Virus record (IMG/VR): IMGVR_UViG_3300045988_115300
Coordinates: 1-40,593 of that record
DNA from: a virus
Length of the DNA: 40,593 bases
Strand: one strand, 5' to 3'
Numbering within the stretch: position 1 is the stretch's first letter; every line of letters begins with the position of its first letter. A program made the translations under genes and the position numbers. Shown one piece after another: positions 1,198 through 20,589 of this stretch. Under the pieces are notes generated by a model. That model worked only from the letters and a program-made list of their open reading frames with translations. It did no database searches and was not told the origin of the DNA.

Positions 1198-4100
1198 ATG
1201 GCCGACAACAAGAACATCGTCGTCCGACTCATGGCCGACACCTCGCAATACGAGACCGCGCTCGCCAAAGCCGGCAAAAGCACCGAGGAACTCGCCGGAG
1301 GACTCGAGAAATCCGGCAGCAAGACCGGCATCGTCACCAAAGGCATCACCGCCGCCGGACTCGCCGTCGCCGCCTTCGGCGTCGCCTCCGTCAAAATGGC
1401 CGCCGACTTCGACGAGCAGATGAGCACCGTCCAGGCCAACAGCGGCGCCACCACCGCCCAACTCGGCCAACTCCGCGAAGCCGCCCTGCAGGCCGGCGCC
1501 TCCACGGTATACACGGCATCCGAATCGGCTGGAGCCATCAACGACCTGGCCAAGGCCGGCATGAGCGTCTCCGACATCCTCTCCGGCGGCCTCACCGCAT
1601 CCCTCAACCTCGCCGCCGCAGGCCAGATGGACGTCGGAAACGCCGCCGAATACATGAGCCAAGCCTTGACGATGTTCCACCTGTCCGGCAAGAACGCGGC
1701 CAGCACCGCCGACGCGCTCGCCGCAGGCGCGGACAAGGCCGTCGGCAACGTGTCCGACTTCGGCGACGCCCTCAACAACTGCGGCGTAATGGCCAACAGC
1801 TTCGGCATGAACCTGCAGGAGACCGTCGGCGTGCTCGGACTCTTCGCCCAGAACGGCATCGTCGGCGCCGAGGCCGGCACCCAGCTCAACTCCATGCTCA
1901 TGCGCCTCGCACACCCCGCGAGCGACGCCGAAGGCACCATGAAGGAACTCGGCATCAGCACCCACGACGCCTCCGGCAAATTCGTCGGCATGGCCAACCT
2001 CGCCGGACAGCTGCACGACAAGCTCGGCAAACTCACCGACCAGCAGCGCCAGGAAGCCGAAGCCACCATCTTCGGCTCGTATGCCATCAAAGGCGCCGGC
2101 ATCATCATGGACGCCGGCAAACAAGGCGTAGAGGACTGGACCAAAGCCGTCTCCGACAGCGGATTCGCCGCCCAACAGGCCTCCAACAAGACCAACAACC
2201 TCAAAGGCGACCTCAAAATGCTCGAGAGCGCCACCCAATCCGCCATGACCAAGATCGGCGAGGGCGCGCAAGGGCCGCTCCGCAAATTCACCCAGGGCCT
2301 GACCGACCTCATCACCGACTTCGGCAACCTCCCCGCCGGAGTCCAACAGGCAATCGTCCTCGGAGCAAGCCTCACCGGCATCCTCGCCGGACTCCACAAG
2401 GCCGTCACACCACTCAACACCAGCACCAGCGCCGCAGCCCAAGCCTTCGGCCTGCTCGTCGACCCCATCCAACGCATCGCCATAGCCGGACCACAACTCA
2501 AAAGCGCCTTCACCGACATCACCACCGCCATCAAAGGCACCGACACCGCCGCCATGGCCGACGGACTCACCCGCACCCAAATCGCAGCCCGAGGCCTCCG
2601 CGGAGGACTCTCCGGCATCGTCACACTCCTCGGCGGCCCGTGGGGCATCGCTTTGACTGTCGCCGGTGCCGCGCTTGCCGCATTCGCCAGCGCTCAGCAG
2701 AAGGCCAAGGAGGCGCAGGACGAGCTCAAGACGAGCATCGAGTCCAGCAGCAACATCGCCGAGACCATCGCCGACCATTTCCAGAATTTGAAGATCGGCG
2801 GCGAGGACGCGTCCAAGGCCATGAAGGAGATGGGCGTCAACCTCACCGACGTGACCAGCAGCGCCATGGGCAACGGCACCGCCATGCAGAAGGTCAAGGA
2901 CGCGCTCGAGGAGTACGTCCAGGCCGCTGGGGACGACACCTCCGAGATGTCGAGGCGCCGCGCCGTGGCTGACGACCTCACGTCCGAAATCAACAAGGAG
3001 TCCAAGGCCTACAAGGAAGCGTCCGACAAGGTCAAGGAAAAGACGAAGGCCGCGAATGATGCCGTAGGCGCCGATGGCAAGAGCGCCTCCTCCGCCAAGC
3101 AGGCCGCCAGCGCCAACAAGGATCTCGGAAGCAGCGCCAAGGACGCGGCCGAGGAAATCGACGGACTCGTCAAATCGCTCTTCGGCCTGGAATCCAATAA
3201 CCTCACCGCCGACGAGGCGGTCGACCAGCTCAACCAGAAGATCGGCCAGCTGTCGGACACCTGCAAGGACAATGGTGTGGTCTTCGACCAGAACGGCAAC
3301 CTGCTCGACAAATTCTCCGAGAAAGGCACGAAGACCAAGCAGGCTCTCGAGGACATCGCCAGCAGCGCGCAGAACGCCGCCGAGAAGATCCTCAAGCAGG
3401 GCGAGAACACCAACTTCAGCAACGGCGAGATCGACCGGGCGAACGGCGTACTCGCCGACGCCCGCGATGCCCTCATCAGGCAGGCCGAGGCGTCCGGCAT
3501 GGGGGAGAAGGCCGCCAACGATCTCGCCGACCGGTGGGGACTGAGCTCCGACAGCATCAAGGCCGCTATTGAGAGCATCAAGCTGACCTCGGATAACAGC
3601 AAGGCGAAGCTCGACGTCGACGATTCCAAGGCCAAGAAGAAGACCAAGGACGCCAAGATGAGCCTTGGCAAATTCCACGAGGTCGATGCGAAGGCCACGC
3701 TGGACGCCGACGCGAAGAAGGCCACCGCCAGCGCCAAGAAGGCGCAGAAGATGATGGACGACTTCAACAAGAAGCACGTCAAGGCCACACTGGATGCGAC
3801 CGACAAGGCGTCCAAGAAAGTCAAGACCGCCTCCGCGAACGTCAACAAGTTCAACGGCAAGAAAGCCACGGCCAGACTCGACGCGAAGGACAACGCATCG
3901 CCGAAGGTCGACAAGGCCAACTCCAAGAAACTGACCAACAAGCGCAACACGCTCAACTCCACCGACATCGCGTCGCAGATAGTGAAACGCGCGAACGCGC
4001 AGAAGCTGGCGAACAAGAAGAACACCTTGGGTTCGACCGACAAGGCCGGGCCGAAGGTCGACGCCGTCAACGCGAAGAAGCTGAAGGACAAGAGGTCCAC

Positions 4101-4614
4101 TGCCTCGGTCAACGACCAGGCCACGCCGGTGCTGCGGTCCATCAACAATTTCAGGATCGCGGACAAGTCCTTCACCGTGACGGAACACACGAATAAGGAC
4201 GGCGGCTACACCGGCGGCATGTTCACCGACGGCACGTTCCGGCATTTCGCCGGCGGCGGCATGTTCAGCGGCTATGTGGATCCGGTCTGGGCGGCGGGGA
4301 ACTCGCTGAGCGATTCCGTGCAGCTCCTCAACGCCAGACTCGCCAGCGGCGAATACGTCGAAAACGCCGCCGCCACGACCTACTACGGCGTCGAGAACAT
4401 GCGCCTGCTGAACGAACGGAAGATCCCGCGCGAAGCATTCGCGACAAGCCGTGGCATGCCGGACGTCAACGTGTCGGTGGACACGGGCGCCGTGGTCGCG
4501 GCGATCACCAGCCTGCACAACGACCTCGGCGCGATCATCAGCGCTTCGGCCGACACGGCATCCATCAGCGACCGAGATCTAGGGAGGCTGATCCGAAGAC
4601 ATGCGAGAGCTTAG
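1198..4614 (+). CDS. Tail tape measure protein
   Basis: 1138 aa. AAAGGAGG precedes the ATG. The sequence is Ala/Lys/Asp-rich and coiled-coil-like, with lysine-rich repeats near the C-terminal third. Position after G/GT. Confidence 0.9.
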   Translation: MADNKNIVVRLMADTSQYETALAKAGKSTEELAGGLEKSGSKTGIVTKGITAAGLAVAAFGVASVKMAADFDEQMSTVQANSGATTAQLGQLREAALQAGASTVYTASESAGAINDLAKAGMSVSDILSGGLTASLNLAAAGQMDVGNAAEYMSQALTMFHLSGKNAASTADALAAGADKAVGNVSDFGDALNNCGVMANSFGMNLQETVGVLGLFAQNGIVGAEAGTQLNSMLMRLAHPASDAEGTMKELGISTHDASGKFVGMANLAGQLHDKLGKLTDQQRQEAEATIFGSYAIKGAGIIMDAGKQGVEDWTKAVSDSGFAAQQASNKTNNLKGDLKMLESATQSAMTKIGEGAQGPLRKFTQGLTDLITDFGNLPAGVQQAIVLGASLTGILAGLHKAVTPLNTSTSAAAQAFGLLVDPIQRIAIAGPQLKSAFTDITTAIKGTDTAAMADGLTRTQIAARGLRGGLSGIVTLLGGPWGIALTVAGAALAAFASAQQKAKEAQDELKTSIESSSNIAETIADHFQNLKIGGEDASKAMKEMGVNLTDVTSSAMGNGTAMQKVKDALEEYVQAAGDDTSEMSRRRAVADDLTSEINKESKAYKEASDKVKEKTKAANDAVGADGKSASSAKQAASANKDLGSSAKDAAEEIDGLVKSLFGLESNNLTADEAVDQLNQKIGQLSDTCKDNGVVFDQNGNLLDKFSEKGTKTKQALEDIASSAQNAAEKILKQGENTNFSNGEIDRANGVLADARDALIRQAEASGMGEKAANDLADRWGLSSDSIKAAIESIKLTSDNSKAKLDVDDSKAKKKTKDAKMSLGKFHEVDAKATLDADAKKATASAKKAQKMMDDFNKKHVKATLDATDKASKKVKTASANVNKFNGKKATARLDAKDNASPKVDKANSKKLTNKRNTLNSTDIASQIVKRANAQKLANKKNTLGSTDKAGPKVDAVNAKKLKDKRSTASVNDQATPVLRSINNFRIADKSFTVTEHTNKDGGYTGGMFTDGTFRHFAGGGMFSGYVDPVWAAGNSLSDSVQLLNARLASGEYVENAAATTYYGVENMRLLNERKIPREAFATSRGMPDVNVSVDTGAVVAAITSLHNDLGAIISASADTASISDRDLGRLIRRHARA

Positions 4615-6432: not shown

Positions 6433-7227
6433 ATGACCATCGAACTAGTCGACGGCAAGGCCGGCGTCGAGCATATCTCAAGCGAGGACAAGGCCATCAT
6501 CCATCAGGCAAAATTCGGCAAATCCGACATGGTGTTCGACTGGGGCGACGCGTTCAAATGCTCGATGAGTTCGTCCAACAGGGCGACGATCGGCACCGGC
6601 TGCGCGTCGATCCAGGGCTTGGACTGGCATATCACGGCGGCGGAATCGGTGACGATCTCCAACGGGTCGCAGGGTATGAAACGCAATGACATCATTTGCG
6701 CGCATTACCATCGAGATTCCGAGACCGGTAATGAGCTGGTGGAATTGGTCGTGCTGAAGGGTTCGCCGAATGCGACTGCCGCCGCTGACCCGAAGGTTCC
6801 GTCAGGGAAGATATTGTCCGGCGCGGTTGACGCGTACATGCCTCTCTGGCGTATTCCGTTGGATGGCATCACGGTCGGTACGCCGGTGCGCCTATTCACG
6901 CCGAGGGGGGCTTTGTGGGATTCCGTAACCCAGACTTTGATTAAATCGCAGTATGGCACCGTGACCGGCGTGAAGTCTGGCAAGATCGCGCAGATTAGCA
7001 TCAACTGGAAAAGCGCGAGCACTGACTCGTGGGGCAGTGGACAGTTCGGTACAATTCCGGAGGGTTGGAGGCCTGCGGTCGTCACGCATGGTACGTGGTC
7101 GGGGCGTGATGGTGGCAGCCAGCGTGATTTCATTCTGGAAACGAATGGCAATTTCCGTTATGCCAATTGTGGCGCGGTGCAGAACGGCGACACGTTCTCC
7201 GGGACGATGACCTACATTCTCGCCTGA
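6433..7227 (+). CDS. Minor tail protein, receptor-binding-protein-like
   Basis: 264 aa; GGTGAGGAAAAATG start context. The C-terminal half is visibly more A+T-rich than the flanks, as expected for an exchangeable head domain. Confidence 0.6.
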   Translation: MTIELVDGKAGVEHISSEDKAIIHQAKFGKSDMVFDWGDAFKCSMSSSNRATIGTGCASIQGLDWHITAAESVTISNGSQGMKRNDIICAHYHRDSETGNELVELVVLKGSPNATAAADPKVPSGKILSGAVDAYMPLWRIPLDGITVGTPVRLFTPRGALWDSVTQTLIKSQYGTVTGVKSGKIAQISINWKSASTDSWGSGQFGTIPEGWRPAVVTHGTWSGRDGGSQRDFILETNGNFRYANCGAVQNGDTFSGTMTYILA

Positions 7228-7329
7228 ATAGCTTTCCGTACGGTCATCCGCACCGGCATGATGCCGGTCAAATACTCCGGTTCCTTCGCTGGAGACAGCT
7301 GGAGCAGCGTGCAATGCGAATATGTACTG

Positions 7330-7721
7330 CCGACCGACTCGCAGCGGCGCAGTCCCGCGCACACGGACACCAATAGCCATGCTTCGAGCGGGTGCCCGTA
7401 GAAGCCTTTCAATAGTCGTCGGACTTCCGGCTCATAGTGCCGTAGGTGTGGCAGGCGTATCTCCCGCCTGGTCACATCGTTGTCCGTCACGCCACGCCGA
7501 AAAGCAAGACGCATCACAGCACGAAACACCGCCCAAGACTTCCGAGCCGCGCCAGCCCTGTCAAAGGACCACAGCCATGACTCCACACCATCCACCGTGA
7601 CCGAATCCAAATCAACACCACTCCACCGAGGCAAAACATGACATCTCAAAGCACTCTCATAACCAACCCTCGTACACTCACGCAACCCCGCGCAAGCCGG
7701 CCGCCAAACCTCATCGACAAA
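7330..7721 (-). pseudogene. Truncated tyrosine recombinase (integrase/invertase) fragment
   Basis: The minus-strand ORF 7212-7874 reads ...YESALRCHVLPRWSGVDLDSVTVDGVESWLWSF...AVFRAVMRLAFRRGVTDNDV...LEAWLLVSVCAGLRRCE. This is the N-terminal SAM-like domain plus the first catalytic Arg box. The similarity then stops; there is no HxxR/Tyr region and no convincing start or RBS. Confidence 0.55.
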
Positions 7722-7843
7722 CACGCCAAACAACAACACAAACACCTTCCAAAAAAGCGAAAAACCCACAAAACCAGCAACGCCCATACGGCGCTCGCCG
7801 ATGCGGGATTTTCTCAAACACAACACTAGTGACAGGAGGAAAA

Positions 7844-8239
7844 ATGACACAGGTGAAATTCGATTTCGGCGCACTCACGACAAGTGGAGTCGCCGACCTC
7901 GCCAACGACCCGATCAGCATCACGCCCACAAGCCGCTTCGCCACCGCCGCCAAAAAGATCGTGGTCGACGAACCGCTCAAGACAGCGCTCGACCAGCACG
8001 GCACCATCACGCTGAATCTTCCGCCGACCGGAAAGGACTGGGCCTACCAGCTGCATGTCGGCGCCGGAACACAGCACGAATTCAAGGTCACCTTCGACGT
8101 GCCAGACAGCGCCAATCCAGTCAACTTCGCCGACCTCGTCACCGTCGACCCGGCCACGCTGATTCCGAACGCGGGGAATCCGCTGTCCGACATCGACCAA
8201 TCCGACATCGACTGGGCCGTCGATGCCATCAACGCCTGA
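7844..8239 (+). CDS. Hypothetical tail-fibre-associated protein
   Basis: 131 aa; GACAGGAGGAAAAATG RBS and start; directly upstream of the DGR target gene. Confidence 0.6.
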   Translation: MTQVKFDFGALTTSGVADLANDPISITPTSRFATAAKKIVVDEPLKTALDQHGTITLNLPPTGKDWAYQLHVGAGTQHEFKVTFDVPDSANPVNFADLVTVDPATLIPNAGNPLSDIDQSDIDWAVDAINA

Positions 8240-8255: not shown

Positions 8256-9827
8256 ATGGCAAATGCAGACAAAGTGATCCGTCTGGGCGATTACGTCCAG
8301 CTGGAACGCGCGCAGAAAAACGCGAATGGATCCAGATTCGCCTACGACGCGGCCAAGAAGGTCGTGTCGAATGTGCGCGAGTATTTCGACGCGCATCGTG
8401 ACGGGCGCACGTATGGCGTGCGTTTCCCGCTCTACTCGTTTTCCAATTCGCCGGACGGCGTGAAGGTCGGCGACAATGCCGGCCTGACCGTCGTGCCAAG
8501 CTCGAATTATCGTGCCGGACGTGATGATTACGCTGGTTTGAGCGCGTTCCGCGTGTTCGACGCTAACGTTGCGGTGGCCGATGATGGCACGCCGGTCGTG
8601 AAGGCCATCAAGGGCTTGGCTGGCAATTACGCGAAGGACGGGTCGAATGGCGACGTGTTCGTCATCACCACTCCCGGCTTCTACCGGTTCGAGTTCGACA
8701 CGAACCATTGCACCATCTGGTATTCGGACACGCAGTACGACGGCTATTCGCCGATGCCGGGCGCGCTGCTGCCGGACGGGTCTCTCCGCCCGTGCATGGC
8801 GTACGCGAAATACCCGCTGTCCAATTACGGCGGCAAGGCCGCGTCCGTCTCGGGTCAGATTCCGGCCTCCATGAGCGAACAAGGCTCCGTGGCCGTAACC
8901 ACCAGCAAAGGCAAGGGCTACAGCGGAAAGACTTCCGCCGACACGTTCTACATGCAGCTCATGCACATGCTCAAATACGCGGCCAAGGACATCGAACGCC
9001 ACTTGGGCGGCGACTTCAACGGTTCCGGCCAGGTCAACGTCAGCAAGGCCGAAACCAACGTCACGCGCGCACTGGTCAAGGCCACTGACGCGGCAGGCAT
9101 CGACCTCGGCTCCTATGTGAGCGTCGGCACCGGCACTGACCGTGGAGACAACAAGACCGGCGAGGCGGCGGCATACCGCAAGGTCATTTCCAAGACCGTC
9201 GTGGACACGGCCACCACCGCGATCAACGTGTCCGGCGCGGCCTTCACCACCACGACGGCCATGCATGTCACCCAAATGCCGTACCTGACCGGTTCGACGG
9301 ACGGCGTGCTCGGCAACGACGGCATCCCCCGCGAGGATGTGTCCAAAACCCATCAGCCGATCAAGCTCCAGGGCATCGAACTGTTCGCCGGAATCTACGA
9401 GACCGAGGGCGACATCATCCTGAAGAACGTGAAGGAGTCGGACACTTCCGGCCATACCGAAGTGTGGAAGGTGTTCGACACCACCAAGGCGAGCGGCACC
9501 GCCATCACCGCCGACTACGTGCATGTGGGCGACTATCCAGCCGTCAACGACAAGACCGACAACCAGTGGCAGTGGCAGACCGACTTCGTTGAGAAGCACG
9601 GATTCCTGCTGCCTACCGGCGTGGGCGCGACAAGCACCAGCGGTCTGACCGACGCGCTGATCATCAACCCGATCTCCGCTCCGGGACTGCATGAGTTGCG
9701 GCGCGGTGGCTATCTCGGGGGCGGCTCGCCCTGTGGGTTGTTCTGCGCGGGCGGCGGGGACGCTCTGTCGAGCGCTTGGTGGTACTACGGCGGTCGCCTA
9801 TCCATTCTTGGCCGCACGCACGCCTAG
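8256..9827 (+). CDS. DGR target protein (putative tail fibre/adhesin with C-terminal variable region)
   Basis: 523 aa from ATG 8256 (GGAAGGAACGCAAATG). The C-terminus ...ELRRGGYLGGGSPCGLFCAGGGDALSSAWWYYGGRLSILGRTHA contains the VR. Confidence 0.85.
   Translation: MANADKVIRLGDYVQLERAQKNANGSRFAYDAAKKVVSNVREYFDAHRDGRTYGVRFPLYSFSNSPDGVKVGDNAGLTVVPSSNYRAGRDDYAGLSAFRVFDANVAVADDGTPVVKAIKGLAGNYAKDGSNGDVFVITTPGFYRFEFDTNHCTIWYSDTQYDGYSPMPGALLPDGSLRPCMAYAKYPLSNYGGKAASVSGQIPASMSEQGSVAVTTSKGKGYSGKTSADTFYMQLMHMLKYAAKDIERHLGGDFNGSGQVNVSKAETNVTRALVKATDAAGIDLGSYVSVGTGTDRGDNKTGEAAAYRKVISKTVVDTATTAINVSGAAFTTTTAMHVTQMPYLTGSTDGVLGNDGIPREDVSKTHQPIKLQGIELFAGIYETEGDIILKNVKESDTSGHTEVWKVFDTTKASGTAITADYVHVGDYPAVNDKTDNQWQWQTDFVEKHGFLLPTGVGATSTSGLTDALIINPISAPGLHELRRGGYLGGGSPCGLFCAGGGDALSSAWWYYGGRLSILGRTHA
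9696..9801 (+). repeat. DGR variable region (VR)
   Basis: Aligns without gaps to 9943-10048 (offset +247): 93/106 identical, with 12 of the 13 mismatches opposite TR adenines. Confidence 0.85.
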
Positions 9828-9855
9828 TGCGGGCGGTTGGGGGTGAGCGCCAGCG

Positions 9856-9873
9856 AGGGGGCGAAAGCCCCCT
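9856..9873 (+). promoter_or_regulatory. GC-rich hairpin with GAAA tetraloop downstream of VR (DGR target-recognition-type structure)
   Basis: AGGGGGC-GAAA-GCCCCCT: a 7-bp stem, 54 nt after the last VR/TR-homologous base and 28 nt after the target stop codon. Confidence 0.6.
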
Positions 9874-9942
9874 AATCACCCTCGTATGACTCTTGGTAAT
9901 ATTTCAGGGATTCGTGACGGTTTCGCCGGGTTCCTCCTGCTT

Positions 9943-10048
9943 TTGCAGCGCGGTGGCAATCTCAGGGACGGCTCGCACTGTGGGTTGTTCTGCGCGTACG
10001 GCAGGAACGATCTGTCGAACGCTTGGTGGAACTACGGCGGTCGCCAAT
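9943..10048 (+). repeat. DGR template repeat (TR)
   Basis: Invariant copy lying between the target gene and the RT. In the VR frame it would read LQRGGNLRDGSHCGLFCAYGRNDLSNAWWNYGGRQ. 17 of its 18 adenines fall at codon positions 1 or 2, including four AAY codons. Confidence 0.85.
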
Positions 10049-10191
10049 AGGGTATCTCTTAATTTTCCGTCACGACTACCCTCCGCGCAGGGGATATGCG
10101 AGAGGGCAAGCCTCGGCCATGCCGAAAATCAGATCAAGAACGCGGCTGGTAGCACATTGCGAACGCCGCCAACATTCCCCCTATAGCTTTT

Positions 10192-11283
10192 ATGAAAACA
10201 TACTGCAAACACTCGCGTATCACCGAACCCGGGTTCGTGCGCGACTGCATCGAGAAATTCCTGAAAGGCAAGAAGTCACGGCGTGACGTGAATGATTTCC
10301 TCCGCCGCCACCCGGACTTGGATTTGCTTTCACGGCAGATCGCCGACGAGATACGACGCGGCGAATACTCGTTCGCTCCTATCCGCTATTTCCGGCGCGT
10401 GGAGCCGATTTCAGGCAAGATACGCACCATCGGACGTGAGAGCATCCGCCATCAGATATACGATTATGTCGCCGGTCAGGCGTTGATGCCGATGCTCCGC
10501 GCGAAGGTAGGCAGATGGCAGACGGCGAGCATACCGAATCGCGGCATAGCCGATGCTCGTCGCGCGATCAAGAAATGGGTGCGCGAACCATCCAGCAGGG
10601 TGTTCGTGAAACTGGACGTGCGTAAATGCTATCCGTCGATAAGCCGTGAGGTGTTGAAACGGCTGCTCGCACGCGACGTGGGGGATAGGCGGCTGCTTGA
10701 TTTGACCTTCCATCTCATCGACCAGTATGCGGGCGATGATGGTTTGAACATCGGCTCGTATTTGAGCCAATGGCTCGCCAATTATTATCTGAGCTGCGCA
10801 TACCACTATTGTGAACGGCATCTCTCAAAGGAGCGCGTGAACCGCAGGACGGGCGAGATAACCACGAGACGGCTCGTGACGCACGTGCTCTTCTACATGG
10901 ATGACATTCTCTTGGTGGGAAGGAGCAAGCGTGACCTGACCATAGCCGTCAGACGCATCCGCGCCTACCTGCGAGACATGCTCAGATTGGAGATTCATCC
11001 GACGTGGAATGTGAAGCACGTCGGAGTGGAGCCTATCGACATGGTGGGCTTCACCTTCTACCCAGACCATACCGGCGTGCGTGCCGGTATATTCCTCCGC
11101 GCCCAACGCGCGTTCCGCCGCTACAAGCGGCATCCATCAAGTCTTCGGCTCGCATACCGTTGCGCCAGCTACTACGGCTGGCTCAAAAACAGCGATTCAA
11201 TCCAATACCGGCGCCGTCACGACGTCGATCAGATCGTCCGCCACGCAAGGAACACCATCGCGGCGCACAACAGGAAGGAATGA
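10192..11283 (+). CDS. DGR reverse transcriptase
   Basis: 363 aa; the YMDD box is in LFYMDDILLVG; NIGSYLSQWLANYYL is the [I/L/V]GxxxSQ motif typical of DGR RTs. Confidence 0.9.
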   Translation: MKTYCKHSRITEPGFVRDCIEKFLKGKKSRRDVNDFLRRHPDLDLLSRQIADEIRRGEYSFAPIRYFRRVEPISGKIRTIGRESIRHQIYDYVAGQALMPMLRAKVGRWQTASIPNRGIADARRAIKKWVREPSSRVFVKLDVRKCYPSISREVLKRLLARDVGDRRLLDLTFHLIDQYAGDDGLNIGSYLSQWLANYYLSCAYHYCERHLSKERVNRRTGEITTRRLVTHVLFYMDDILLVGRSKRDLTIAVRRIRAYLRDMLRLEIHPTWNVKHVGVEPIDMVGFTFYPDHTGVRAGIFLRAQRAFRRYKRHPSSLRLAYRCASYYGWLKNSDSIQYRRRHDVDQIVRHARNTIAAHNRKE

Positions 11284-11747
11284 CAATGATCCAGAACGTC
11301 AGCTCGGCCACGCCATTGGACGCGGTCGAATACCATCTCCGCGACGACGGACTAGCCGACATCCGCATCCGCAAGAACATCAAGCAGGTCGACCACGAGG
11401 CCACCGACCAGATGCCGGCATGGAGCGAATGGACCGCCATCGAATCCTACCAGGTGCTCCCATTGCAGGAGCAGGAGGCCGTCGAGCAGGCCGACATGCT
11501 CTTCGAAGGCGACGTCACCAGCTCCCAGCCGGTGCTCGACCGAATCACGGCGCTGGAACAGTCCTCACTGGACAACGCCCAGCTTTTGGCCGACCTCCTC
11601 GCCGACGATTCCACAGATGACTCCACCGATGATTCCGCAGATAACTCGGCCAACCACACGCCGTCCGACACCGATGTGGCCGATGACAAGACCACCACCG
11701 GCCACATCGATTCCGTCGACACAGACAAATCCGGAAAGGAGGAGTGA
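11280..11747 (+). CDS. Acidic hypothetical protein, translationally coupled to the RT
   Basis: Its ATG overlaps the RT stop (ATGA). 155 aa, with an Asp/Ser/Thr-rich tail (DDSTDDSTDDSADNS) encoded by 12-bp tandem repeats. Confidence 0.6.
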   Translation: MTMIQNVSSATPLDAVEYHLRDDGLADIRIRKNIKQVDHEATDQMPAWSEWTAIESYQVLPLQEQEAVEQADMLFEGDVTSSQPVLDRITALEQSSLDNAQLLADLLADDSTDDSTDDSADNSANHTPSDTDVADDKTTTGHIDSVDTDKSGKEE

Positions 11748-11749
11748 CC

Positions 11750-11884
11750 ATGGCCAAAGTCAACCGCGCGGCAGCCGTCCGCATGTATGTCAGACTCGTC
11801 AAGGCCGGACGCATGGAATTGGACGAAGTGCCCGAGAAATACCGAGACGATGTGCAGTCCAAGCTTGACCCCTGGGATGACTGA
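11750..11884 (+). CDS. Small XkdX-like phage protein (44 aa)
   Basis: MAKVNRAAAVRMYVRLVKAGRMELDEVPEKYRDDVQSKLDPWDD. Tightly packed (3 nt after the upstream stop; its stop overlaps the next ATG). Size and position between fibre and lysis genes resemble the XkdX family. Confidence 0.45.
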   Translation: MAKVNRAAAVRMYVRLVKAGRMELDEVPEKYRDDVQSKLDPWDD

Positions 11885-12270
11885 TGCCACCGCTTTTTTC
11901 AAGCACGGAATTCTGGACGTCTCTCATCGTTGCCCTGATCGGCGGTGGAGGAGTGGGCGCCATCATCGGCGCCATCTCCGGCAGACGCAAGGACACCGCG
12001 GACATCGCCGCGAAGGCTTGCGACATCCTCACCGATTCCGTCATCAAGCCTTTGAGGGAACAGGTCGAGTCGCAGGAGGAGCAGATTCAGCATCTGGAGG
12101 TCCAGCAGCGCAAATACTTCGCGCTCACAGCTTACACACGCTCGCTTTTCCACTGGCTCCAACAGTTTTGCGAGATCGTCGAGCCCGACTTCCTCCAAAG
12201 GCATCCGAAGCCGCACCTGCCGGACGAGCTGCGCGCCGACGTGGCTCCGGAGACCGTGGAGGGCGAATGA
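11884..12270 (+). CDS. Membrane protein with one N-terminal TM helix, possibly lysis-associated
   Basis: 128 aa; the TM segment is FWTSLIVALIGGGGVGAIIGAI, followed by a coiled-coil-like region; directly upstream of the lysis genes. Confidence 0.55.
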   Translation: MPPLFSSTEFWTSLIVALIGGGGVGAIIGAISGRRKDTADIAAKACDILTDSVIKPLREQVESQEEQIQHLEVQQRKYFALTAYTRSLFHWLQQFCEIVEPDFLQRHPKPHLPDELRADVAPETVEGE

Positions 12271-12405: not shown

Positions 12406-13674
12406 ATGCGCAAGCACAAGCCTCCGTGGCTCAAACGCTTCCGCCTGGCGGTCACCGGCGTGGTCATGGCCATCACCATGGCCGTGGCGCCAGCCGCGAT
12501 GGCCGACCTCAACGGCGTCGACATCAGCGGCTATCAGTCGGCGGATATACCGTCCGCCATCTCGGCCGACTTCGTCATCGTCAAGGCCACGCAGGGGCTC
12601 TACTGGAGCAACAACAACTACGCCACGCAACTGGCCAACGCCGACCGTACAGGCAAGGAGACCGGTGTCTACCACTTCGCCAACGGTGGTAACGCCACGG
12701 CGGAGGCCGACACCTTCGTCAACGCCGTCGCCGGACGCGTCGGACGCTCCATACTCGCCCTCGACTGGGAGCAGTGCCTCGCCTACGGGCGATACGGCTG
12801 CGCGACCGCCAACCCAAACTGGGGCAATCCGGCATGGATCCAGATATGGGTGACCCGAGTGCATGACCGCACGCAGGTCTGGCCCATCGTCTACGTCCAG
12901 CGCTCCGCGGTCTGGCAGGTCAACACCTGGGTGCGACAGCGGTGCATGCTCTGGGTGGCGCAGTACGCCAACAGTCAGCCGACCGGATACCAGCCCAGCC
13001 CATGGAACGGCGGAGCGTCCGGCGAAGGCATGACGCAGTACGCCAGCACCGGCTACATCAACGGGCGCGGCCCGCTCGACCTCAACCGTTTCTACGGCGA
13101 TCGAACCGCCTGGAAGAAGATTGCCTGCGGCGAACGCGCCGGATGCTCCACCGGGACCGTCACCACGGCCCCACAGGTCAACAAGCCAGCGGAGCAGACG
13201 CCGACCGACCTCAACGTGCTGGCCGACAAGGTCATCCACGGAGACTATGGCAACGGCCAGGAGAGAATCAATCGCCTCGGCGGCAACTACAACGCCGTCA
13301 TGGCGATCGTCAACTCCAAGCTCGGCGGCGGATCCTCCACTCAGACCACCGTGACCCGCACGCCGTCCCGCACCTACGTGGTCCGTTCCGGCGACACCGT
13401 GTCGGCCATCGCCGAGCGTACCGGCCTTAAGCCGGCCTCCGCGTGGCGCGTGCCTTCCGGCAACATCAACCGGATCTACGTTGGCCAGACGATCACCTAC
13501 TACGGCTCCGTCTCCACGACTGCAGCTCCGTCCACGACCTACTACGGCTCCACTCACGTGGTCAGTGCAGGCGAGAGCCTGTGGAAGATCTACGGCGCCG
13601 GCTGGTATGCCGCGGCTCAGCGCAACGGCATCCGCCCGCCGTACACCATCTACCCAGGCCAGCGGCTCCGCTGA
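12406..13674 (+). CDS. Endolysin: signal peptide + GH25 muramidase + Cpl-7-like repeat + 2 LysM domains
   Basis: The N-terminus MRKHKPPWLKRFRLAVTGVVMAITMAVAPAAMA|D looks like a Sec signal. NGVDISGYQ...VIVKATQG is a GH25 signature. VIHGDYGNGQERINRLGGNYNAVMAIVN is Cpl-7-like. Two LysM-like blocks follow (YVVRSGDTVSAIA..., HVVSAGESLWKIY...). Confidence 0.9.
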   Translation: MRKHKPPWLKRFRLAVTGVVMAITMAVAPAAMADLNGVDISGYQSADIPSAISADFVIVKATQGLYWSNNNYATQLANADRTGKETGVYHFANGGNATAEADTFVNAVAGRVGRSILALDWEQCLAYGRYGCATANPNWGNPAWIQIWVTRVHDRTQVWPIVYVQRSAVWQVNTWVRQRCMLWVAQYANSQPTGYQPSPWNGGASGEGMTQYASTGYINGRGPLDLNRFYGDRTAWKKIACGERAGCSTGTVTTAPQVNKPAEQTPTDLNVLADKVIHGDYGNGQERINRLGGNYNAVMAIVNSKLGGGSSTQTTVTRTPSRTYVVRSGDTVSAIAERTGLKPASAWRVPSGNINRIYVGQTITYYGSVSTTAAPSTTYYGSTHVVSAGESLWKIYGAGWYAAAQRNGIRPPYTIYPGQRLR

Positions 13675-16113: not shown

Positions 16114-17376
16114 ATGGTCAGGAAGTTCGGCAAGATCGTCGTCAAGCCAAGCAAGGCCAATCCGAAATGGATAGAGGCCTCCTATCTTACGCCAGTGTCC
16201 GCCTTTTCGGAATGGCCGGACCTGCCGAACAGGCAGACCGCCACCTTCCCCTGCACCCAGGACGGCAGGGACGAGGCCGCGGCATGGCTGACCAGAGCGA
16301 GACGGCGCATCGAGGCTGACGTGTGGGAGCCGGAGCGCATCGCCAAGCGCAAGGCCAAGGACACCGCCCTGACATTCGGCGAGTATGCCGCGAAATGGCT
16401 GAAGACGCGGGAGGGCGAAGGACTGCACGTCAACACCATCTACGGGATCCGATGCACGGTCAAACGGCTCATCGATGCATTCGGCGGCATGCCGATCGGC
16501 AAGATCACCTCGGCCGACATCGAGCGCTATGCGGCCACACTGCCGAAGGACCACCCATACGTCGGTCGAGAGCTGCTGTCCAAGCTCCGCCAGATCCTCG
16601 ACGCCGCCGCGACCCCAGACCAGGACGGCTTCGCCGTCATCGGCAAATCACCATTCGTCATGCCGGTGCGCAAGCCCGCGCCCAGGGAGGAGACACCCGC
16701 CGCCACACCACAGCAGCTCCGGCGGATCCACGACGCCATGCCACGCAAATTCCGGCTCGCCATCACCCTCGCCATCTCCTGCGGAGGCCTGCGCATCGGC
16801 GAGGTCTGCGCCCTCCAACGCGGCGACATCGACCTCGACAACCGTCTCATCCACATCCGCCGCACCAGACTCACCCGCGCCCGCGTCATCGCCGGGCCGC
16901 CGAAGACCGCCAGAAGCAAACGCACCGAACCAATCCCCGAAGCCGTCATCCCCGAAATCCGCGCGCACCTCGCCGAATATGTGGCCGACCAGCCGGACGC
17001 ATGGATATTCCCCAGCCCGCTGGACCATGACAGGCCGATCAGCACGGACGCCATGCGCGACGCCTACGTCAAGGCGAGACGCGCAGCCGGACGCGAAGAC
17101 CTCCGATTCCACGACCTCCGCTCCACGGCACTCACCATGCTCGCCCAACAGGGCGCCACCGTCCGCGAACTCATGGCCGCAGCCGGACACAGCACCGCCA
17201 TCATGGCCATGCACTATCAACGACTCAGCGAAGACCGACAGCGCGCGCTCGCCGACAAGGTGGCCGCCAACATCACCACGCCGCAGCGGGACGCCACAGT
17301 CTCGGCTGAGAGCGACAAGGATAAGGAGATCGCCCGGCTCCGCGCGCGTCTGGCAGAGCTAGAGGCGGGGGAGTAG
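16114..17376 (+). CDS. int: Tyrosine integrase
   Basis: 420 aa; GGLRIGEVCAL (Arg box), HDLRSTALTMLAQQG (HxxR) and GHSTAIMAMHYQRL (catalytic Tyr region). Confidence 0.92.
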   Translation: MVRKFGKIVVKPSKANPKWIEASYLTPVSAFSEWPDLPNRQTATFPCTQDGRDEAAAWLTRARRRIEADVWEPERIAKRKAKDTALTFGEYAAKWLKTREGEGLHVNTIYGIRCTVKRLIDAFGGMPIGKITSADIERYAATLPKDHPYVGRELLSKLRQILDAAATPDQDGFAVIGKSPFVMPVRKPAPREETPAATPQQLRRIHDAMPRKFRLAITLAISCGGLRIGEVCALQRGDIDLDNRLIHIRRTRLTRARVIAGPPKTARSKRTEPIPEAVIPEIRAHLAEYVADQPDAWIFPSPLDHDRPISTDAMRDAYVKARRAAGREDLRFHDLRSTALTMLAQQGATVRELMAAAGHSTAIMAMHYQRLSEDRQRALADKVAANITTPQRDATVSAESDKDKEIARLRARLAELEAGE

Positions 17377-20466: not shown

Positions 20467-20556
20467 GCCGGAGCCCGCGACAGGATGCGGGCGCCATAGA
20501 TCGGCGCTCCGATAACGCCGGCGGATGGATGCGCGGTTCGATTCCGCGCTCCGGCA
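20467..20556 (+). ncRNA. tRNA-like element (possible non-canonical class II tRNA or pseudo-tRNA)
   Basis: Perfect 7-bp acceptor (GCCGGAG / CTCCGGC). D-arm CGCG-ACAGGA-TGCG with A14 and GG. A 5-bp stem GCGCC/GGCGC closes a 7-nt loop AUAGAUC. A 24-nt variable region follows. Canonical T-arm CGCGG-TTCGATT-CCGCG. It lies in a 263-bp gap with no credible ORF. Confidence 0.4.
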
Positions 20557-20589
20557 CGACATCCAATCCAATCCCAAAGGAGGCACACG

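Follow-up and report, generated by a model that had tools for sequence, protein, structure and literature searches.

A well-preserved Avd-less diversity-generating retroelement at the end of the tail module of a putative temperate Bifidobacterium phage

Diversity-generating retroelements (DGRs) aimed at tail genes are common in gut phages. The IMG/VR virus record IMGVR_UViG_3300045988_115300 (positions 1 to 40,593; this whole 40,593-nt stretch is referred to here as the window) raises the question of whether the cassette at 8256-11283 is a complete DGR, what it rewrites, and how such an element may operate without the accessory protein Avd. A first-pass annotation, made from the sequence alone, had described the cassette as a complete DGR aimed at a tail-fibre-like gene. 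The analysis reported here bears this out: the locus is very probably a complete Avd-less DGR that rewrites the tip of a tail-fibre-like protein in a temperate Bifidobacterium phage. This reading is carried by a DGR-type reverse transcriptase (RT), an adenine-specific pair of template repeat (TR) and variable repeat (VR), and diversification of VR at the population level. The core elements, including the core of the initiation of mutagenic homing (IMH) sequence, are as follows.

8256-9827, + strand: DGR target gene, tail-fibre-like, 523 aa (phrog_17147, 3e-80; phrog_5302 'tail protein', 9e-14), with VR at its 3' end
9696-9801, + strand: VR, at the 3' end of the target gene; mutagenised part from 9696 to ~9784
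9785-9798, + strand: IMH core CTACGGCGGTCGCC, GC-rich; homology stops at 9799 in all aligned relatives
9943-10048, + strand: TR, with 18 adenines; a stop codon is unreachable from any adenine-containing codon
10192-11283, + strand: DGR RT, 363 aa (Pfam RVT_1, 2e-12; phrog_1423, 2e-73)

VR and TR align without gaps at an offset of 247 nt, with 93/106 positions identical and 13 mismatched. All but one of the mismatches face TR adenines (binomial p = 6.3e-9 for at least 12 of 13, given 18 adenines in 106 positions). TR adenines occupy codon position 1 or 2 in 17/18 cases, all 12 changed VR codons are nonsynonymous, and none of the adenine-containing TR codons is able to mutate to a stop. Recomputation of the repeat coordinates, the identity, the mismatch and codon-position counts and the nonsynonymous character of the changes returned the values first noted, including the sole non-adenine mismatch, TR T9997 against VR G9750. 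Position 9997 is A in 27/27 other distinct TRs, and the mismatch most likely reflects a later A-to-T change in the window's TR, or belongs to the 4% non-adenine background of the family. The earlier figure of 12 substituted adenines among 18 holds as a count, but not as a count of mutagenised positions. At VR 9799 / TR 10046 all aligned VRs of close relatives carry T and all aligned TRs carry A, and 74 close target homologs have zero entropy at codon 515, so this mismatch marks the IMH/IMH* boundary rather than mutagenesis, which leaves 11 substituted adenines among 16 in the mutagenised part.

The relatives comprise 29 genome loci and >100 viral contigs, retrieved via the RT, the open reading frame (ORF) after the RT, and the lysin. 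Homologs of RT and target occur in B. longum, B. breve, B. adolescentis, B. pseudocatenulatum and metagenome-assembled genomes (MAGs), and more distantly in Collinsella and many gut Firmicutes, while a megablast search of the cassette against the reference phage collection gave no match. The first-pass annotation had proposed that variation among relatives should be confined to positions opposite TR adenines, and this is the pattern found: in the 54 loci whose repeats align gaplessly to the window TR, 664/693 TR-VR mismatches (96%) fall at TR adenines. Eight distinct VRs occur among ten loci whose TR is identical, with 21/22 variable positions at TR adenines, and other groups sharing a TR behave in the same way. 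Where the TRs of relatives differ at non-adenine positions, the same base is found in each cognate VR. Among the 74 target homologs (87-93% identical to that of the window), mean entropy is 0.92 bit over codons 481-516 and 0.17 bit elsewhere, with the peaks on codons opposite TR adenines. Adenine-specific pairs are also present in distant loci from Firmicutes and others (e.g. 13/13, 18/18 and 13/13). These patterns point to directional TR-to-VR transfer with diversification of VR only, as a property of the family rather than of the window copy taken alone.

Two relatives depart from this arrangement. In L076 (IMGVR_UViG_3300045988_099143; RT at 3406-4491), no more than 6 adenines are present in the TR, which lies upstream of the RT and is VR-like (GGCGGTCTCTGGG...GAGGCGAGCGGCTGGAGC); this DGR seems to be eroded, its template overwritten. 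In L032, a single TR-like copy is present at 6597-6702 and the 515-aa target ends just before the RT, VR and TR having collapsed, a state that could stem from recombination of the two repeats or from an assembly artefact.

The RT ORF is intact, and the motifs on which its first assignment had rested were located at aa 187-193 (IGSYLSQ, the DGR-type motif 4, [I/L]GxxxSQ) and aa 235-238 (YMDD). Comparison with DGR, group II and retron RTs, a check proposed at the outset, places the BPP-1 enzyme ahead: the top match in the PDB is 8ub7, verified as BPP-1 bRT (7e-13), followed by a group II RT (1.7e-4) and a retron-type RT (2e-3). Identity to BPP-1 bRT is 26% over 296 aa (blastp, 2e-19), and all RT relatives in the reference phage collection are at most 37% identical. 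Judged by the two motifs and by its closest solved relative, the enzyme is an RT of the DGR type.

The target was described from the outset as tail-fibre-like. This accords with the PHROG 'tail protein' match, with the position of the gene in the tail module, and with the architecture of its homologs, which span 500-1370 aa with a C-terminal module of ~490 aa and in a few cases carry Collagen or BppU_N N-termini. The target family comprises 646 clusters at 50% identity. A C-type-lectin fold, on which DGRs display VR, is a candidate fold for the VR domain of the target. Searches of the target against Pfam, NCBIfam and (by phmmer) the PDB gave no match, nor did an 88-sequence profile against the PDB or 70 family members against Pfam. 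The AlphaFold2 (AF2) model, built from a 23-sequence alignment, has a predicted local distance difference test (pLDDT) score of 39. Alignment of the target with Mtd by hhalign gives a probability of 0.3%; Mtd's own lectin domain is without a Pfam model. There is a loose resemblance between the VR segment of the target, RRGGYLGGGSPCGLF...WWYYGGRLS, and the VR of Mtd, FGGAWNGTSLSGSR...FFGARG.

What would mark VR as recipient, and TR as template? Downstream of VR and on either side of TR, the following RNA or DNA elements were found.

9811-9837, + strand: stem-loop 1, with the target stop codon in its loop; structure kept by compensatory changes between phage groups
9856-9873, + strand: stem-loop 2, AGGGGGC-GAAA-GCCCCCT; GGGGGC/GCCCCC stem invariant, loop variable
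9912-9920, + strand: 5' strand of the TR-bracketing duplex, UCGUGACGG; 22 nt upstream of TR
10067-10075, + strand: 3' strand of the TR-bracketing duplex, CCGUCACGA; 18 nt past the TR end, just 5' of the RT-19 RNA
10075-10171, + strand: RT-19 RNA (Rfam RF03073), in the TR-RT spacer; P1 at 10079-10106, hairpin at 10114-10124 followed by AAAA, P3 at 10142-10169

The hairpin noted earlier at 9856-9873 is at that position and folds; the 105-nt region has a folding z-score of -4.0 against shuffles. The hairpin is preceded by stem-loop 1, whose variants include CCGCAC/GUGCGG, CCGCUC/GAGCGG, CCGGUC/GACCGG, UCGCAC/GUGCGA and CACCAUGGC/GCCAUGGUG. Between the two stem-loops, at 9838-9855, lies a noncoding motif, GGGGGTGAGCG(NN)AGCGA, whose conservation extends from Bifidobacterium as far as Collinsella; the GGGGGU within it is a potential competitor of GGGGGC for pairing with the GCCCCC arm. 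On sequence, the 3' end of VR and the region past it have the GC-rich IMH core, the IMH/IMH* boundary and the inverted repeats by which DGRs are recognised.

The TR-RT spacer (143 nt) contains a match that covers the whole RT-19 model (positions 1-99 of 99) and scores 96.3 bits (E = 6e-20), above the gathering score of 78.3. In an anchored 14-sequence alignment, which underlies all RNA pair counts given here, P1 of RT-19 is 100% paired with compensatory changes in 4/8 pairs. The duplex that brackets TR (9912-9920/10067-10075) has compensatory changes in 6/9 pairs and 91% of cells paired, against 28-48% in slid controls where the 3' partner was moved by 1-3 columns. Its variants between phage groups include UCGGAGUG/CACUCCGA, UUGUGGCG/CGCCACAA and, in Collinsella, CUCGGCGG/UCGUCGAG. 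Taken together, the duplex, P1 and the small hairpin have 94.8% of cells paired and compensatory changes in 11/21 pairs, a level reached by 0/500 shuffles. RT-19 gave no match at the gathering score in 12 more distant loci. Phage_DGR (RF03022) has no match in the window, and scores 104.7 bits on the BPP-1 spacer.

In BPP-1 RNA, the spacer (Sp) contains an Avd-binding stem-loop (Sp 3-33), a primer strand (Sp 47-56) and a duplex strand (Sp 59-70) (bioRxiv 10.1101/2023.10.23.563531). The window duplex corresponds to the avd:Sp 'cPRT Stop' duplex described there. Only 18 AU-rich nt separate TR from the duplex strand in the window, and there is therefore no room for an Avd-binding stem-loop; this cramped gap fits the missing avd gene. 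RT-19 belongs to the 'RT' motifs that Weinberg et al. 2017 described, and had no assigned role; only RT-10 was placed in a DGR, and the other RT motifs were guessed to be possible DGR parts (PMC5737381). RT-10 is the present Rfam Phage_DGR, which matches the BPP-1 spacer. The RT-19 match in the window is full-length and directly upstream of an RT gene, and it lies in the TR-RT spacer of a DGR.

The lack of an Avd-like gene, claimed in the first-pass annotation, was upheld. The interval from the target stop to the RT start is 364 nt, and the 115 nt between VR and TR leave no room for avd. Pfam bAvd matched 0/138 window ORFs of 85-190 aa on both strands, and none adjoining the cassette, while BPP-1 Avd as a positive control was recovered at 7e-36; phmmer with BPP-1 Avd as the query gave nothing in the window at E <= 10. 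No basic Avd-like ORF was found in the genome loci of relatives. The suggestion that this absence is unusual did not survive comparison with the literature, as 26% of catalogued DGRs lack avd and DGRs of Bifidobacterium prophages have already been reported. In the survey of Wu et al. 2018, avd was present in 74% of 372 DGRs, Architecture A (no accessory gene) accounted for 29%, and Lineage 3 was without avd throughout (PMC5758913). DGRs in Bifidobacterium prophages are on record (PMC8705816), tail-targeting DGRs are given for 26/286 B. longum prophages (bioRxiv 10.64898/2026.02.18.706556), and DGR clades with Actinobacteria prophages have been described (bioRxiv 10.1101/2020.04.01.020958). The RNA elements, the acidic ORF described below and the absence of Avd go unmentioned in the searched passages of these papers on Bifidobacterium and Actinobacteria DGRs. 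For Eggerthella DGRs, a possible equivalent of avd has been described (PMC8778435).

By analogy with BPP-1, these elements suggest the following order of events. A transcript spanning ~9905-10180, and comprising the 5' duplex strand, TR, the 3' duplex strand and the RT-19 RNA, would form a ribonucleoprotein with the RT. The RT would copy TR into cDNA with misincorporation opposite adenines, and the cDNA would replace VR at the 3' end of the target gene (8256-9827), with the GC-rich IMH core and the two downstream stem-loops marking VR as the recipient. With 12 codons varied, ~1.9e9 protein variants would be accessible at what is presumably a receptor-binding surface, and host range could change as a result. 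Scanning the cassette for promoters and terminators gave no site on the + strand, so transcription is assumed to occur with the late operon.

How firmly can this be held for the window copy itself? Several observations weigh against it. The fold of the VR domain has neither a usable model nor a sequence match in Pfam or the PDB. A template:primer duplex, a priming adenosine and a primer strand, sought by eye, were not located, and the missing promoter is a further point. The window TR is poorer in adenines than those of most relatives (16 vs 19-21 in the first 102 nt). At codons 497 and 499 (9990-10000) it has TGC and TAC in place of the AAC found in nearly every other TR of the close group; codon 497 is hypervariable in the population, and in this copy it is frozen as Cys because the template has TGC. 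A single sequence cannot establish ongoing diversification, so for the window copy activity is something we infer. Separately, the window TR differs from the commonest TR type at 5 positions, 3 of them adenines, which hints at occasional write-back of mutagenised sequence into TR, or at a short VR-to-TR conversion.

Some of these points would suit a cassette that is a DGR by descent but a fossil in this genome, its VR written in the past and homing since lost. The reduced adenine content of the TR is in line with this, as is the one non-adenine mismatch, which would have accrued since the last writing, and decay does occur in relatives (the 6-adenine TR of L076 and the single TR-like copy of L032). 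Against it, the RT ORF is intact including its catalytic motifs, RT-19 scores above its gathering threshold, the IMH core, the bracketing duplex and the two stem-loops are all intact, with little or no difference from the versions in diversifying relatives, and TR equals VR at all non-adenine positions except one. We regard a fossil as unlikely. An ordinary duplication of the 3' end of the gene, next to an unrelated RT from a group II intron or retron, would account for the best NCBIfam match of the RT, a group II intron RT model, which reaches 64 bits against a cut-off of 300. This explanation is refuted by the adenine bias (p = 6e-9 here, and 96% of mismatches at TR adenines over 54 loci), by a TR that is without a start codon context of its own and better conserved than VR among relatives, by Rfam, which gives RT-19 only, with no intron RNA domains or retron msr/msd found, and by the closest solved RT being that of a DGR; its probability is negligible. 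The reading as a complete Avd-less DGR is held with high confidence.

If Avd is absent, could another protein take its place? The candidate is encoded directly after the RT, at the head of three small genes.

11280-11747, + strand: small acidic protein, 153-155 aa, isoelectric point (pI) 4.05; its ATG overlaps the RT stop (ATGA)
11744-11884: 46-aa ORF (orf46), after the acidic ORF; same arrangement in Collinsella and several Firmicutes loci; no Pfam match
11884-12270: 128-aa ORF (orf128), with a hydrophobic Gly-rich N-terminal stretch, by eye a possible membrane segment; no Pfam match

The acidic gene lies directly 3' of the RT in all Bifidobacterium and Collinsella loci, in 80/80 of the viral contigs retrieved with the acidic ORF, and, by profile and iterative searches, in 26/29 genome loci from four phyla, including Firmicutes and an Akkermansia MAG; two further genome loci that reach past the RT have small acidic ORFs there that are unmatched. 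The AF2 model is confident over residues 1-110 (block means 72-97, and >90 to about residue 80) and predicts four strands, three helices and a disordered acidic tail, with no helical bundle. Foldseek searches of this model gave nothing significant in the PDB (best E = 0.18, SecB) and only uncharacterised phage proteins in BFVD, and tblastn with the Bifidobacterium and Firmicutes versions of the ORF gave no match in the reference phage collection. The acidic ORF and orf46, the latter resembling XkdX, were considered as possible XkdW/XkdX homologs, for which there is no Pfam support.

The acidic protein is a candidate accessory factor, or a candidate chaperone or partner of the tail fibre. As an accessory factor of an Avd-less lineage, it would work with an RT-19-type RNA in place of Avd and its stem-loop, and may be related to CH1, a small acidic protein (160-169 aa, pI 4.7) with no known motif that is confined to Avd-less DGRs (PMC5758913). 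This role is suggested by its place directly after the RT in the viral contigs and in genome loci with RT identity down to 29%, by a start that overlaps or abuts the RT stop, by the lack of a basic Avd-like ORF in loci that carry the gene, by its likeness to CH1 as described (small, acidic, Avd-less DGRs only), and by the mere 18 nt at the site of the Avd-binding stem-loop of BPP-1. On the other hand, the tail-fibre target family is conserved along with the acidic gene, so a chaperone role fits equally well. Identity of the acidic ORF follows the orf46/orf128/lysin block rather than RT and target (92% vs 66% for the RT in L039; 67% vs 87% in L059), and an orf46-like gene also follows it in Firmicutes loci. 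The protein is acidic, in contrast to Avd, which is a basic four-helix bundle of about 110-130 aa that binds nucleic acid; no significant PDB match was obtained for the model of the acidic protein, and the likeness to CH1 is one of description rather than of sequence comparison. The accessory role is accordingly put forward only tentatively, as possible and somewhat improbable. Three phages with the same lysin and no DGR are without the acidic ORF, orf46 and orf128, and do not discriminate between the two roles because orf46 and orf128 are missing as well.

A mosaic breakpoint is seen between the RT and the acidic ORF (11283/11286; L039-L086). Phages with a 92%-identical acidic ORF/orf46/orf128/lysin block can have an RT of only 66% and a target of 61% identity, and the reverse is also seen. 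The target-TR-RT unit is evidently exchanged as a block.

More broadly, a lineage of gut-phage DGRs ranging over Bifidobacterium, Collinsella, many Firmicutes and Akkermansia may have replaced Avd and its stem-loop by a ribonucleoprotein of the RT, an RT-19-type RNA with the bracketing duplex, and the acidic beta-alpha protein. We consider this doubtful; were it so, the acidic protein would define a second class of DGR accessory factor, with no structural kinship to Avd, and a function could be given to RT-19.

The window is, from its gene content, the genome of a temperate siphovirus-type Bifidobacterium phage whose tail module ends in the Avd-less DGR. The gene order is tape measure, minor tail, receptor-binding protein (RBP), recombinase remnant, 136-aa gene, target, TR, RT, three small genes, lysin and holin. 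The neighbouring features are listed below.

1198-4614: tape measure gene (PhageMin_Tail), with minor tail proteins next
6433-7227: RBP-like gene, 264 aa, in two PHROG-defined halves
6921-6931: single rix-like site, TTCCGTAACCC, where the two PHROG halves of the 264-aa gene meet
7212-7874, - strand: remnant of a tyrosine invertase, with the N-terminal 150 of 291 aa left; intact in relative L030 at 53-928
7829-8239, + strand: 136-aa acidic protein (phrog_28754), weakly matching tail fibre and minor tail proteins at their N-termini
12406-13674: GH25/CW_7/LysM lysin, followed by a Dp-1 holin
16114-17376: ORF weakly similar to tyrosine recombinases, probably the integrase; regulators follow

The 136-aa gene lies directly upstream of the target in those Bifidobacterium relatives that have it, and its product is probably the N-terminal anchor part of a split tail fibre. 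The separate conventional RBP-like gene, upstream of the cassette, that the first-pass annotation had listed as an unusual point is indeed present; its presence is not unusual, the gene being part of what is apparently a decayed Rin shufflon at 6433-7874. Rin shufflons require an intact invertase and at least two inverted rix sites, neither of which is found in this interval, and are known in bifidophages (Mavrich et al. 2018, PMC6109161). As the decayed shufflon adjoins the DGR, the phage lineage has two adjacent receptor-diversifying systems.

A tRNA-Ser gene (anticodon AGA) lies at 20467-20557, some 3 kb away from the putative integrase ORF; it may be a tRNA of the phage or have to do with the attachment site. 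Among the ORFs of 85-190 aa outside the cassette, one matches PBECR4 (phage Barnase-EndoU-ColicinE5/D-RelE-like nuclease, 5.5e-7) and others match the regulator families HTH_17 and HTH_26.

The value of the locus lies in providing a clean and well-populated Avd-less model, with hundreds of natural relatives that display the TR-to-VR pattern, with RNA elements defined by covariation, and with RT-19, a functionless Rfam motif, placed in a DGR. To our knowledge, all mechanistic work on DGR reverse transcription to date has been on Avd-dependent systems. A compact system that evidently works without Avd makes the role of Avd, and what replaces it, testable, with the linked acidic gene as a candidate. 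The locus also bears on host-range plasticity of phages in a key genus of the infant gut.

Compared with the BPP-1 DGR (mtd-avd-TR-brt), the window cassette has the same order of target, VR, TR, spacer and RT, placed where the tail module ends and ahead of the lysis genes, with VR at the 3' end of the target, adenine-specific mismatches and a GC-rich IMH core. Both have a GC-rich hairpin with a GAAA loop past the target stop (in BPP-1 GCGGGGCC-GAAA-GGCCCCGC, 3 nt beyond the mtd stop), a TR-bracketing duplex in which sequence upstream of TR pairs with the spacer, spacers of similar length (143 vs 144 nt), and RTs that are 26% identical. They differ in that the window is without avd between VR and TR, in the distance from TR to the duplex strand (18 nt in the window, 58 nt in BPP-1) with no Avd-binding stem-loop in the window, in the spacer RNA (RT-19 vs Phage_DGR, RF03022), and in the number of stem-loops past VR (two vs one). 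The window target is also without detectable similarity to Mtd, and an acidic ORF is coupled to the window RT.

With the Avd-less DGRs that Wu et al. 2018 described (Architecture A, which has TR and RT only, Architecture E with CH1, and Lineage 3), the cassette shares the absence of avd, HRDC and MSL, a TR-RT core, a target upstream on the same strand, and a small acidic ORF without known motif beside the RT (PMC5758913). Compared by description, the window ORF (153-155 aa, pI 4.05) differs from CH1 (160-169 aa, pI 4.7) in length and pI. The DGRs reported in prophages of Bifidobacterium and of Collinsella/Eggerthella also compare closely with it, those of Eggerthella with a possible avd equivalent (PMC8778435). 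The window cassette is thus a well-preserved example of an Avd-less kind of DGR that has already been described, and not a new system.

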